From NCBI RefSeq assembly GCF_054482525.1, contig NZ_CM137006.1: 64,000 bases of DNA; one strand, 5' to 3'. This document shows, in pieces, positions 33,001 to 39,000 of the stretch. Made by a program: the position numbers. How positions within the stretch are numbered: the first letter of the stretch is position 1; the number at the start of each line of letters is the position of its first letter.

Positions 33001-36000
33001 CAATGTTTACTAACGCCAAAATGTTATTTTTATAACATTCTTACGGAGAGAGAGTTGATGGAAACGAAGCAAAAAGAGCGTATCCGACGTTTGATGGAAC
33101 TGCTTAAGAAAACCGACAGAATCCATTTGAAAGACGCAGCGCGAATGCTGGAAGTTTCTGTAATGACTATTCGTCGCGATCTCCATCAGGAAGATGAACC
33201 TCTGCCACTGACCCTACTGGGTGGCTATATTGTAATGGTGAATAAACCCGCGCCATCCATGCCAGTAATCCATGACGTTCCAAAAAATCATCGTGATGAC
33301 TTACCTATTGCAATTCTGGCTGCCGGAATGGTTAATGAAAATGATCTGATCTTCTTTGATAATGGTCAGGAGATACCACTCGTTATAAGCATGATCCCGG
33401 ATGCAATCACCTTCACCGGTATCTGTTACTCACATCGCGTCTTTGTTGCGTTGAATGAAAAGCCTAATGTAACAGCAATACTTTGTGGTGGTACGTATCG
33501 TGCCAGAAGTGATGCTTTTTACGATGCCAGTAACTCTTCGCCATTAGACTCTCTCAATCCGCGAAAAATATTTATTTCCGCCAGCGGTGTGCATAATCAC
33601 TTTGGCGTCAGCTGGTTTAACCCTGAAGATCTTGCCACTAAGCGTAAAGCGATGAACCGTGGACTACGGAAAATTTTGCTCGCCCGCCACGCGTTGTTCG
33701 ATGAAGTGGCCTCTGCCAGCCTCGCACCGATCTCTGCATTTGACGTTCTGATTAGCGATCGTCCGTTACCGGCAGATTATGTTACGCACTGCCAGAATGG
33801 TTCTGTAAAGATCATTACACCTGATTCAGAAGACGAATGACTTACTGAAAAAACACCACAATCTTGTTAAACATCGTCGGATTGGACTGATTACGTTGCA
33901 CTTTCACCACATATTCCAGCTTATCTATTTGGCTTATCACCTACTCCAGACGCTGGTCATCCTTGACCAGTAGCCAGATATGGCTTTTGTCGCAGTCCTG
34001 AATCGGCAGGCAGAGAATGTCTTCAACGTTAAGAGCGCGACGGGCAAAAGCCCACAAAGGTGAGTCATTACACCCGGATGGTAAACAGGCACTTCCTTGT
34101 TGTAGAAGCCGTTATATTGTCCATAATGTCTGGGTTTTTAATGCATACTGGGTAACAACCGGACGAATCTTCGAATATCACTGGCGCTGCCAGCCGGTTT
34201 GAATTCATCTCACAACCCTGCATAGAGCGAATCTCCTGCCTGCACGTCACTCCACTCCATGGTATCAACTTCACACTCTTTATCTGCGGCTAGTTTCAGC
34301 CACCAGATAAGCATCGACTATGAAAGATGAGCCATGACAACATAACGTTGGTAACGCTCTGACGCCTTAATGGAAGATGCCTGCCACCATAGGGAATGTA
34401 AACGACTGAAGTGTGGCCTTTAATGCCGTGAACGGCTCATGGTCTCCTGGCACGGTTGCCGCCCCAACCTGTAACAACATTCCACAGTACAATGTCTGTC
34501 AGAGTCAGAGCCTCCCATGCTTGTTGTAGTAACTCTACCAGTTACGAACATCCTTCCTCAAAATTGTTGTCATATCTCGCATGGAAGAAAAGATCCTGGC
34601 TAAGGAGCAACACACAACGTATTGCGGAACTTGCATATTTTTCCTGTAACTAGTGTATTACCACATATGGTAATAGCTACCTGTGTGGTTTCGCTGGATA
34701 GCAAGGGGATTTATTCGCAAGTAAAATGCCTGATAAAATACACGAATCTAGTAATCATCAATATTTACTCTGGTCGAATGACGCGTGAAGTGGACTGCCA
34801 GCAGACGCGGCCAGTGGTCCACCGCCTGCTGAACAAAACGCCAGATATCTCCCGGCTCTGAAAGTAACGCTTCGGTTATTTGCACGGAATACTACTCCTT
34901 CAGACTCTGTTAAGTTTTGTTTGTTAAACCGGTGCAGACCTGCAGGAAAGCATGCCAGCACCGGCACTGTACGATATAAACATCCGGTACCGGGGATACG
35001 AATGGAATGACGAATACGCCAGAAAAGGGATAACAACCTTCCTCATAATGGTGAAATCATTCGCTATCGGTTACACGGTACGCGATGTCGCCAAAGGCAG
35101 CTGGATCGACGAATCCACGGTCACGCTACCGAAAGCGCCGCCGCTTAACACCCTGCCTCGGGCGACCAAAGTGCCGGAGCCGCAGCCGCCGCAGGAAGAT
35201 TACACCTTTGAAGGTTACCGCAACGCCGACGGCAGCGTGGGCACCAAAAACCTGTTGGGTATTACCACCAGCGTGCACTGCATGGCAGACGTTGAGGACT
35301 ACGTGGTTAAAATTATCGAACGCGACCTGCTGCCGAAATACCTGAGCATCGACGGCGTGGTCGACTTGAACCACCTCTACGGCTGTGGCGTAGCGATTAA
35401 TGTACCGGCCGCCGTGGTGCCAATTCGCACCATCCATAATATTGCGCTGAACCCAAACTTCGGTGGCGAAGTGATGGTGGTGGGCATGCAGTGCGGTGGC
35501 AGCGACGCGTTCTCCGGCGTTACCACTAACCCCGCGCTGTCGGCTACGACTCTGACCTGCTGGTGCGCTGCGGCGCAACGGTGATGTTCTCCGAAGTCAC
35601 TGAAGTACGCGACGCCATTCATCTGTTAACGCCACGCGCCATCAATGAAGAAGTGGGCAGGCGTCTGCTCGAAGAGATGGCCTGATACGATAACTATCCC
35701 GATATGGGCAAAACCGACCGCAGCGCCAACCCTTCGCCGGGCAACAAAAAGGGCGGCCTCGCCAACGTGGTAAAGAAAGCACTCGGCTCCATTGCTAAAT
35801 CGGGTAAAACCGCAATTGTTGAAGTGCTGTCGCCCGGTCAACACCCGACTAAACGCGGATTAATTTACGCCGCGACGCCAGCCAGCGATTTTGTCTGTGG
35901 CACGCAACAGGTGGCTTCGGGTATCACCGTGCAAGTGTTTACGACCGGCCGTGGTACGCCGTACGGCCTGATGGAGGTACCCGTCATTAAAATGGCGACC

Positions 36001-39000
36001 CGCACCGGGCTGGCGAACCACTGGTTTGATTTAATGGATATTAACGCAGGCACTATCGCTACCGGCGAAGAAACCATTGAAGAGGTGGGCTGGAAGTTGT
36101 TCCACTTTATTCTCGACGTCGCCAGCGGGAAGAAGAAAACCCTCTCGGATCAATGGGGATTGCATAACCAACTGGCAGTGTTTAACCCGGCACCGGTGGC
36201 CTGATATTCTCTTCATACATTAAGTTGTATTATGCCCGATAACGCTTGTTTATCGGGCATAGTGAATCACAGCGAAGACGCGAGCTCCCCGACCAGAATC
36301 ACTTCAACCCCAGCCTTTCGCAAGCCTTCCAGACTATCCGCAGGAATGCCTTCATCAACAATGATCATGTCGATACGTTGAGTATCAATGATCTTATGTA
36401 AACTGGAACGATTGAACTTACTGGAATCGGTGACCACGATGATCCGTTCCGCAACTTCGCACATCCGGCGGTTTAAACGGGCTTCATCTTCATTATGCGT
36501 GCTGACGCCGCGCTCCAGATCGATCGCATCTACACCAAGAAACAGCATATCGAAGTGGTAATTTTGCAGCGATTGCTCAGCCTGATCGCCGTAAAAAGAT
36601 TGCGACTGACGGCGCAAATGCCCGCCGGTCATCAGCAGCTCAACGCCTTCCGCTTCCAGCAACGCATTAGCCACGTTCATACCGTTGGTCATCGCAATTA
36701 CGTCAGTGTGCTTGCGCATCAGACGAGCAATCTCAAAAGTGGTGGTCCCGGAATCGAGGAGCACCCGATGACCTGGCTGAATCAACTCAACGGCAGCTTT
36801 CGCAACGCTGCGTTTCATCGCGGTGTTCAGTGCGCTTTTGTCTTCCACTGATGGCTCGACTGACGGCGTCGTGCTATCGCAGATCAACGCGCCACCATAG
36901 GCACGCACAGCGATCCCCTGCTTTTCCAGAAACGCCAGATCGTTGCGGATCGTCACAGTAGATACGCCATACAATGCCGACAGATCGTTAACCTGCACAC
37001 TCCCTTGCTGTCGCAGACGCTGAATGATCTGTTCTCGTCGCTCGCTGGTGCCTGTCACTCGCTTCTCACCTGAAGCGTCGGTATTACTCATAGTAAGTCC
37101 TTTCGTAAAACTTTCGTTTCATTTCGTTTTGCCTATTAACGCCTTTCTATTAAGCAAATGCAAGCCCACCTTGCCCATTGGCGCAAGCTACTCTCGTTTC
37201 ACTGACTTTCATTATGTTTCTTTTGTGAATCAGATCAGAAAACTATTATCTTTCGTTTTATTTTTATCTCACCATGACGCAGTATCAACTGAAACAAAAC
37301 GAAAGATTAATATCGCAGCAATCTGAACTGGAGAGGAAAGTGAAACATCTGACAGAAATGGTGAGGCAGCACAAAGCGGGCAAAACAAATGGAATTTATG
37401 CCGTTTGTTTTGCCCGCTTTGTGCTGCATGGGGCGAGCGATGTGCCGGATGAGTATGTTCGTCGCACCATTGGGCCAGGCGTCTGCAAAGTCAACGTTGC
37501 AACCGAGTTGAAGATCGCCTTCTCTGACGCTATCAAAGCTTGGTTTGCTGAAAATCAGCAGAGCAACGATCCGCGCTTTTACATGCGGGTTGGCATGGAC
37601 GCCATGAAAGAGGTGGTCAGAAGCAAAATCGCCGTCTGCGGCTCGGCAAATCGATTACGGCTACCGGCGGAGGCCTGATCCAACAGCGTATTACCTCAAT
37701 ATTTCAAAATAATTATAAGTCCCACAAATATGAAGGCGCGTCCTTAAACCGGGTAGTGCCTTCCATTATCCTAAAATTCGAGGAGCCCTATATGACACAA
37801 AAAAAATCTTTTAAATCAAAATTATGGGAATTTTTACAAAGTCTGGGGAAAACCTTTATGTTCCCGGTTTCGCTTCTTGCCTTTATGGGATTGCTGCTGG
37901 GTATCGGTAGTTCAGTCACCAGCCCTTCCACCATTACTAGTTTTCCCTTTCTGGGCGGCGAATTTACCCAGTTGACCTTTGGCTTTATCGCTATGGTCGG
38001 TGGCTTTGCTTTTACCTATCTGCCGCTGATGTTTGCCATGGCGATCCCCATGGGGCTTGCCAAGCGCAACAAAGCGGTCGCTGCCTTTGCCGGGTTCGTT
38101 GGCTACATGCTGATGAACATGAGCATTAATTATTACCTGACGGCTACCCACCAGCTTGCCGACCCCGCCACCATGAAACAGGTAGGACAATCGATCGTGC
38201 TGGGCATTCAAACCCTGGAGATGGGGGTATTAGGTGGCATTGTGGTTGGGGTTATCACCTATTTTCTGCATGACCGTTTTCAGGACACGGTTCTGCATGA
38301 CGCCTTCGCCTTCTTTAGCGGCATTCGTTTCGTGCCGATTATTACCGCGCTCACCCTGTCGCTGGTGGGTCTGTTCATTCCCATGCTGTGGGAATACGTC
38401 GCGCTGGGCATCGCGGGCATTGGGCATATCATCCAGAGCACCAGCGTTTTCGGCCCCTTCCTCTACGGCGTAGGCGTGCTGCTGCTTAAACCTTTTGGTC
38501 TGCACCACATCCTGCTGGCGATGGTGCGTTTTACCCCAGCAGGCGGCATTGAAATGGTAAATGGCCATGAGGTCGCCGGGGCGCTGAATATCTTCTACGC
38601 CGAGCTCAAAGCCGGCCTGCCGTTTAGCCCGCACGTTACCGCGTTTCTGTCACAAGGGTTTATGCCGACCTTTATCTTCGGTTTACCCGCCGTGGCTTAC
38701 GCCATCTACCGCACCGCGCGTCCGGAAAATCGGCCGGTCATTAAGGGGTTGCTGCTTTCCGGCGTGCTGGTTTCCGTCGTCACCGGTATTTCAGAGCCGA
38801 TTGAGTTCCTGTTCCTGTTTATCGCCCCCGCGCTTTACGCCTTCCATATCGTCATGTCTGGCCTGGCGCTGATGGTAATGGCCCTGCTGGGAGTGACCAT
38901 CGGCAATACCGACGGCGGCATTCTGGATCTGCTGATTTTCGGCGTGATGCAGGGAATGTCGACCAAATGGTATCTGCTGTTCCCGGTTGGTATTGCCTGG

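Follow-up and report, generated by a model that had tools for sequence, protein, structure and literature searches.

Serine tRNA genes serX and serW are integration sites for a described family of genomic islands in Escherichia coli and Shigella, exemplified by PAI-CFT073-serX and the SRL pathogenicity island (PAI); these islands have a P4-type integrase, a boundary at the 3′ end of tRNA-Ser(GGA) and mosaic cargo with insertion sequence (IS) elements, Ag43 and a dcuA/racemase pair, and both their presence and their cargo vary by strain (PMC7545054). Galactarate dehydratase is encoded by native E. coli garD (b3128, UxaA/GarD family), which lies at 3.27 Mb on the K-12 map with garP upstream and a convergent agaR downstream. 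The 64,000-nucleotide stretch analyzed here (contig NZ_CM137006.1 of RefSeq assembly GCF_054482525.1; hereafter the window) also carries garD sequence beside agaR. We found that this garD-agaR segment is a second copy in a mobile genomic island of the serW/serX type and not the native gar-aga locus, and that its garD is very probably a non-functional fossil within a passenger fragment of the island. A preliminary description of the window had implied that the organism's own garD had decayed and that the prlF-yhaV pair, which separates garD from agaR in K-12, had been lost; neither implication held, as shown below.

The region contains three garD-like open reading frame (ORF) fragments (34952–35584, 35563–35685 and 35704–36204), followed by a convergent DeoR-family gene of 274 amino acids. 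When K-12 GarD (523 amino acids) was compared by tblastn with positions 34500–36300, residues 73–215 were matched (E = 4e-84) and, in a different frame, residues 302–522 (E = 4e-149), with a stop at W352. Pfam recognized partial GD_AH_second and GD_AH_C domains and returned no match to the SAF domain among the garD fragments. The lesions were placed by nucleotide alignment with the island copy of ATCC 25922, Kluyvera georgiana garD and K-12 garD. On the evidence of tblastn, Pfam and the Prokaryotic Genome Annotation Pipeline (PGAP), the pseudogene spans 35040–36204 on the plus strand and corresponds to approximately codons 60–523; homology starts only at ∼35040, the remnant has no SAF domain, no start codon and no promoter, and the sequence 5′ of it matched no gar locus. 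Four further lesions follow on the same strand: an 11-bp frameshifting deletion at 35065/35066, a 219-bp (73-codon) deletion at 35474/35475, a 2-bp frameshifting insertion near 35536 (35535–35538), which coincides with the frame switch between the tblastn segments, and a TGG(W352)-to-TGA nonsense codon at 35683–35685. The 219-bp deletion is flanked by 10-bp direct repeats TGGTGGTGGG, of which the remaining copy lies at 35475–35484. The 11-bp deletion and 2-bp insertion occur only in the lineage of island copies represented by the window, and the ATCC 25922-type copy shares the TGA. At 36202–36204 the gene still has its original stop codon. PGAP labels the identical sequence [quoted passage not shown] Homology to GarD is thus retained, and no single open frame covers both catalytic domains; judged from its coding sequence, the island garD′ cannot produce galactarate dehydratase. 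These results bear out the preliminary description in regarding this garD as dead through several independent lesions, with its start missing, an internal deletion and at least one frameshift, and in placing its 3′ end ∼60 bp from the agaR stop (62 bp as measured). That description began the gene at 34950; pseudogene sequence does lie in the span, but the ATG at position 34950 opens a chance ORF, and the first ∼30 codons of that ORF do not descend from garD.

The surroundings of the segment are those of an island. To its right, a tyrosine integrase gene (58184–59386, minus strand; 187 bits to the integrase domain, against a full-length model cut-off of 434) is annotated as such on the E-ge-1 and ATCC 25922 counterparts, and is followed by the island/chromosome boundary at 59547–59740, where blastn against the K-12 clpA-serW region identified two copies of the serW 3′ end (14–16 nucleotides, at 59547 and 59725) with downstream sequence. 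Beyond the boundary lies clpA (60084–62375, minus strand; NCBIfam ClpA, 1695 bits), and clpA-clpS of the window is 97.7% identical to that of K-12. By this flank, the segment maps to ∼0.92 Mb in K-12 coordinates rather than to 3.27 Mb. The boundary was examined at the right end, the left end being beyond the window, and ARAGORN found no complete tRNA in the window. The neighbors of the native gar-aga locus, namely the divergent garP-garL-garR-garK genes upstream and the rnpB/tdc neighborhood, were not found around the segment; its own neighbors are a type I restriction-modification operon with DarTG, IS elements, malX, patB and an “enterotoxin” gene, then the integrase, the serW 3′-end repeat and clpA-clpS. 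The copies in SLK172, ATCC 25922 and E-ge-1 likewise lie amid IS elements, malX/patB/“enterotoxin” genes and a tyrosine integrase. The island occupies serW, on the clpA side, in the window and serX in E-ge-1 and ATCC 25922. With a terminal integrase, a tRNA 3′-end boundary carrying a short repeat, patchy presence and alternative sites, the island is a member of the described serX/serW family (PMC7545054).

Comparison with 5426 complete E. coli genomes by megablast, in which an island copy was counted at ≥95% identity, detected the island garD in 503 genomes (∼9%). In the remaining genomes the best match was native garD, at ∼90% and over the 3′ part only. The number of garD places per record is two where the island copy is present and one where it is absent: 5872 places were found in 5366 records, and the surplus of ∼505 agrees with the 505 copy-bearing records. 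Approximately 300 genomes match at ≥99%. In E-ge-1, which matches the window at 99.99% over 37 kb, the native locus lies 2.5 Mb from the island and is intact, with garK-R-L-P, a 1572-nucleotide garD, prlF, yhaV, agaR, kbaZ and the rest of the aga operon. Since the native garD of the host is separate, no phenotype is expected from the dead island copy.

The garD remnant joins sequences with different closest relatives. The island copy shares with native E. coli garD the last ∼430 nucleotides (∼96%), the stop position and the convergent agaR downstream; it differs from it in lacking the first ∼60 codons and the promoter, in its four additional disabling lesions, in having no garP upstream, in its position at serW and in codons ∼60–378, which are only ∼79% identical. 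Measured against the K-12 or E-ge-1 native locus, identity is 77–80% over 35046–35488, ∼90% over 35475–36213 and 98.7% over 36285–37409 (agaR, the intergenic region and the 5′ end of kbaZ), and falls to 77% in the kbaY remnant. We collected 80 Enterobacterales garD loci by a one-genome-per-species contig scan with island-specific peptides, which returned no Escherichia or Salmonella loci. Over the middle segment the best of the 80 was K. georgiana ATCC 51603 (locus L009) at 93.6%, with the runner-up at 82%. The K. georgiana-like portion of the pseudogene extends over 35040–35765 (plus strand; the 93.6% identity is measured over 420 nucleotides), and the E. coli-like 3′ portion over 35772–36204 (plus strand; ∼96% to three native E. 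coli garD genes and 82% to K. georgiana). In sliding windows, identity to K. georgiana was 90–97% until ∼35779, and identity to E. coli was 90–100% from there to the stop codon. Informative sites resolve the recombination breakpoint sharply to between 35763 and 35772: 110 of 123 sites to the left are of Kluyvera type, and 67 of 73 to the right are of E. coli type. The K. georgiana garD itself, the best match for 35040–35765, falls to ∼80% past 35772 and is followed by a gat-like cluster, not by agaR.

In the ATCC 25922-type copy, where more sequence is kept, the E. coli-like tract extends to the kbaZ′/agaS′ deletion junction, and the agaS′-kbaY′ remnant beyond that junction is ∼80% identical to E. 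coli. These comparisons demonstrate that, at the level of sequence, the passenger fragment garD′-agaR-kbaZ′-kbaY′ is a chimera with a K. georgiana-like left part, an Escherichia-type center running from the garD 3′ end across the spacer and agaR to the kbaZ 5′ end, and a diverged right part (agaS′/kbaY′, ∼77–80% to E. coli). No full-length Kluyvera-like garD, and no Kluyvera-like garD 5′ end, was found in any E. coli genome searched. Repeated gene conversion of the island agaR by the native locus of each host was considered and rejected, since the island agaR of ATCC 25922, a B2 strain, is nearer to K-12/B1 alleles than to the native allele of the B2 strain S88; the same relationship implies a single acquisition of the E. 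coli-like tract that predates the spread of the island.

We compared the garD-agaR junction with native junctions. The preliminary description had given the K-12 order as garD-prlF-yhaV-agaR, and comparison with K-12 confirmed this. A 501-bp junction probe was, however, fully covered in 635 genomes, ∼130 above the number of island carriers, so ∼130 complete genomes natively have no prlF-yhaV. Two of them, SCU-306 and S88 (sequence type (ST) 95), have native garD followed directly by an agaR of 274 codons. The native S88/SCU-306 spacer aligns with the island spacer; both have the hairpin arms ATGCCCGATA/TATCGGGCAT and the five codons (...ASSL) by which AgaR is longer. AgaR has 269 amino acids in K-12 and 274 in S88, SCU-306 and the island copy. 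In K-12 (locus L004, 6855–7860), similarity breaks off a few bases past the garD stop codon and, on the other side, precisely at that of agaR, breakpoints which indicate that insertion of prlF-yhaV replaced the last five agaR codons. Among the 80 Enterobacterales garD loci, agaR lies directly downstream of garD in 30, and PrlF or YhaV was found at none. A published survey detected YhaV in ≥60% of isolates of every E. coli ST studied, except ST95 and ST12 (2% each) (PMC10790755). The island junction resembles that of native ST95-type strains and other Enterobacteriaceae in its convergent garD and agaR, its hairpin spacer of ∼50–60 bp and its 274-residue ...ASSL AgaR; it differs from the S88/SCU-306 junction by a 10-bp indel and several substitutions in the spacer (92.6% over 501 bp), and the body of the island agaR is 99% identical to K-12/B1 alleles versus 96.7% to S88. 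These alignments indicate that the junction without prlF-yhaV is ancestral and that the pair was never present at the island copy.

The decay of garD′ can be partly ordered. The 5′ truncation is present in all island copies, which a K. georgiana 5′ probe matches only from ∼codon 73. The TGA is common to the two island lineages compared (window type and ATCC 25922 type), which are 2.4% apart, and is thus an old lesion. The 219-bp deletion is present in 312 of the 503 carriers; the other 191, including Nissle 1917 and ATCC 25922, have kept the segment. A TAG stop, a 1-bp deletion and a deletion inside agaR are peculiar to the ATCC 25922-type copy. Counted over codon positions 1, 2 and 3, the two island lineages differ in the ratio 10:13:11, compared with 3:1:31 among native alleles and 31:12:221 between K-12 and K. 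georgiana. The island garD thus lacks the third-position excess of purifying selection, and the even split indicates neutral decay of garD′. HH45 (93.6%) was considered as a third island variant and set aside, its assembly having frameshifts in every gene of the region.

From these data we propose recombination between a foreign gar-aga segment and an E. coli locus without prlF-yhaV, in one direction or the other. The recombinant would have lost its 5′ end and acquired the TGA before the island spread, after which separate lesions may have arisen in each island lineage: in the window type, the 11-bp deletion, the 219-bp deletion, putatively by slippage between the 10-bp repeats, the 2-bp insertion and a kbaZ-to-kbaY deletion with an inverted duplication; in the ATCC 25922/Nissle type, the TAG stop, the 1-bp deletion and the deletion inside agaR.

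Downstream of garD′, a 62-bp spacer (36205–36266) of the prlF-yhaV-less type separates it from agaR and contains a hairpin (36231–36261) with perfect 12-nucleotide arms (−22.7/−19.7 kcal/mol, z = −4.6/−3.7). The second agaR copy (36267–37091, minus strand) is intact, with whole HTH_DeoR and DeoRC domains; it is 98.8% identical to K-12 agaR in nucleotides, and its 274-residue product is K-12 AgaR with I110L and a 5-residue LASSL tail. The agaR-kbaZ intergenic region (37092–37339), which holds divergent promoters and operators in K-12, is retained inside the 98.7% K-12 match. Because the protein is nearly identical to the characterized K-12 protein and this control region is kept, it is plausible that the island AgaR would work as a second repressor. 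There follow, on the plus strand, the first ∼25 codons of kbaZ (37340–37414), identified by sequence match to E. coli, and the last ∼85 codons of kbaY (37421–37678), 77% identical to E. coli kbaY. At the deletion junction between them lies a 30-nucleotide inverted duplication of kbaZ sequence (37366–37427) with a 27-bp stem (−51.7 kcal/mol folded as RNA, z = −9.2); the ATCC 25922-type island has another deletion at the kba site, without the inverted duplication. A scan of the region for consensus promoters and terminators found no more sites than in shuffled sequences. The malX start lies 78 bp past kbaY′ on the same strand.

Three other explanations were weighed. Decay of the native garD in place, with deletion of prlF-yhaV bringing it against agaR, would accord with the genuine K-12 gene order and with the E. 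coli-like sequence (96–99%) of agaR and the garD 3′ end. However, the flanks are island genes and clpA/serW instead of garP/rnpB/tdc/yra, the native locus is intact in E-ge-1, which carries the same island, and the 5′ two-thirds of the remnant are Kluyvera-like; moreover, the spacer is homologous to native prlF-yhaV-less spacers, including the agaR end that is longer by five codons, so no deletion of the pair needs to be invoked. We consider this explanation highly improbable. Still less credible is the view that the gene is intact and that its frameshifts, stop and deletions were introduced by sequencing or assembly errors. Error-rich assemblies such as HH45 do exist, but eight independent complete genomes match positions 34600–36300 at 100%, which argues that the lesions are not sequencing errors, and ∼300 match at ≥99%; the TGA and the 5′ truncation recur in a lineage that differs by 2.4%, and the 219-bp deletion has a clear repeat-mediated junction.

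It is unlikely, though less so than either of these, that the remnant was kept for a function, whether as a C-terminal ORF of 166 amino acids (35704–36204), as a hairpin spacer terminating agaR, or as an agaR and kbaZ-promoter switch responsive to N-acetylgalactosamine for malX-patB-“enterotoxin.” The intact agaR, the conserved agaR-kbaZ intergenic region, the proximity and orientation of malX and the stable spacer hairpin are consistent with such a role. Against it stand the neutral evolution of garD′, a promoter scan no richer than shuffles and the 27-bp-stem hairpin, which sits between the kbaZ promoter and malX. In the ATCC 25922/Nissle-type island, moreover, agaR carries a frameshift and an internal deletion, and only 81 nucleotides of malX remain, while patB and “enterotoxin” persist, and thus the parts have not been retained together. 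We similarly hold it doubtful that the window-type island captured agaR and the kbaZ promoter/operator as a regulatory cassette with the dead garD′ as a mere passenger; a kbaZ promoter driving malX-patB-“enterotoxin” is speculative. If such capture had occurred, N-acetylgalactosamine from host mucin would induce a malX-like phosphotransferase system transporter, a PatB-like C-S lyase and the “enterotoxin” gene. The reading we prefer, a chimeric garD fossil carried as a passenger of the island, has points against it as well. That this exact strain has an intact native garD is something we infer from near-identical relatives and population counts. Identity to K. georgiana reaches only ∼94%, and no agaR follows garD there, which suggests that the true donor was an unsampled relative, and the donor scan returned only loci with the island-specific peptides. 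The right-hand breakpoint is deleted in both island lineages, and the order and direction of the recombination events are not recoverable.

Other features of the window were recorded. At 4623–7544 lies a gene for an autotransporter adhesin of the Ag43/Cah family (1986 bits), a kind of cargo typical for islands at serX. At 13375–22710, a type I restriction-modification operon runs in the order hsdM (13375–15813), hsdS (15807–17147), an embedded DarT/DarG toxin-antitoxin pair (17160–18880) and hsdR (18899–21994), after which comes a SprT-like protease gene (21994–22710); all these names follow the annotation of E-ge-1, whose sequence is identical. At 23902–25985, an amino-acid racemase gene is paired with one for an anaerobic C4-dicarboxylate transporter, and the same type of cargo, AspR-DcuA, is listed for the Shigella SRL island at serX (PMC7545054). 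A sugar cluster at 29463–33840 encodes an aldose 1-epimerase, a FucP-like permease, a ribokinase-like kinase and a divergent DeoR regulator, and is followed by a small ilvN-like pseudogene (33842–34068). This four-gene cluster is similar to deoQKPX, the operon with which pathogenic E. coli uses deoxyribose. No Pfam or NCBIfam match was obtained at the thresholds used for the 637-residue “enterotoxin” protein (40540–42453), whose name is therefore an annotation alone. We make no claim that malX is the classic “PAI marker” of extraintestinal pathogenic E. coli; the RPAi primer sequences used were unmatched within 3 mismatches. A 1310-bp IS3-family element (47683–48992) with a 3-bp target duplication, compatible in both respects with IS629, interrupts a large AAA/helicase gene that is whole (4959 nucleotides) in E-ge-1. 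The O157 islands OI-43 and OI-48 are further examples of serX/serW-integrating islands.

The garD pseudogene as such is not new, since PGAP has already flagged it in hundreds of RefSeq genomes. A literature search found no published description of the garD′-agaR relic or its chimeric Kluyvera/E. coli ancestry, the search term “agaR” being swamped by “agar.” K. georgiana is regarded as a source of E. coli CTX-M beta-lactamase genes, a precedent for gene flow in this direction, and the chimeric ancestry is a detail of a familiar process. In practice, scans that see a garD pseudogene beside agaR without prlF-yhaV could wrongly infer loss of galactarate use or of the toxin-antitoxin pair in ∼9% of E. 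coli genomes, when these features belong to the island relic; when reads are mapped or pan-genomes clustered, moreover, the relic becomes mixed with native garD and agaR. For the biology of E. coli, the relic documents gene flow from Kluyvera into the species followed by recombination with an E. coli locus, and it keeps the ancestral garD-agaR junction, in which, as the alignments indicate, insertion of prlF-yhaV has replaced the last five agaR codons in most E. coli.

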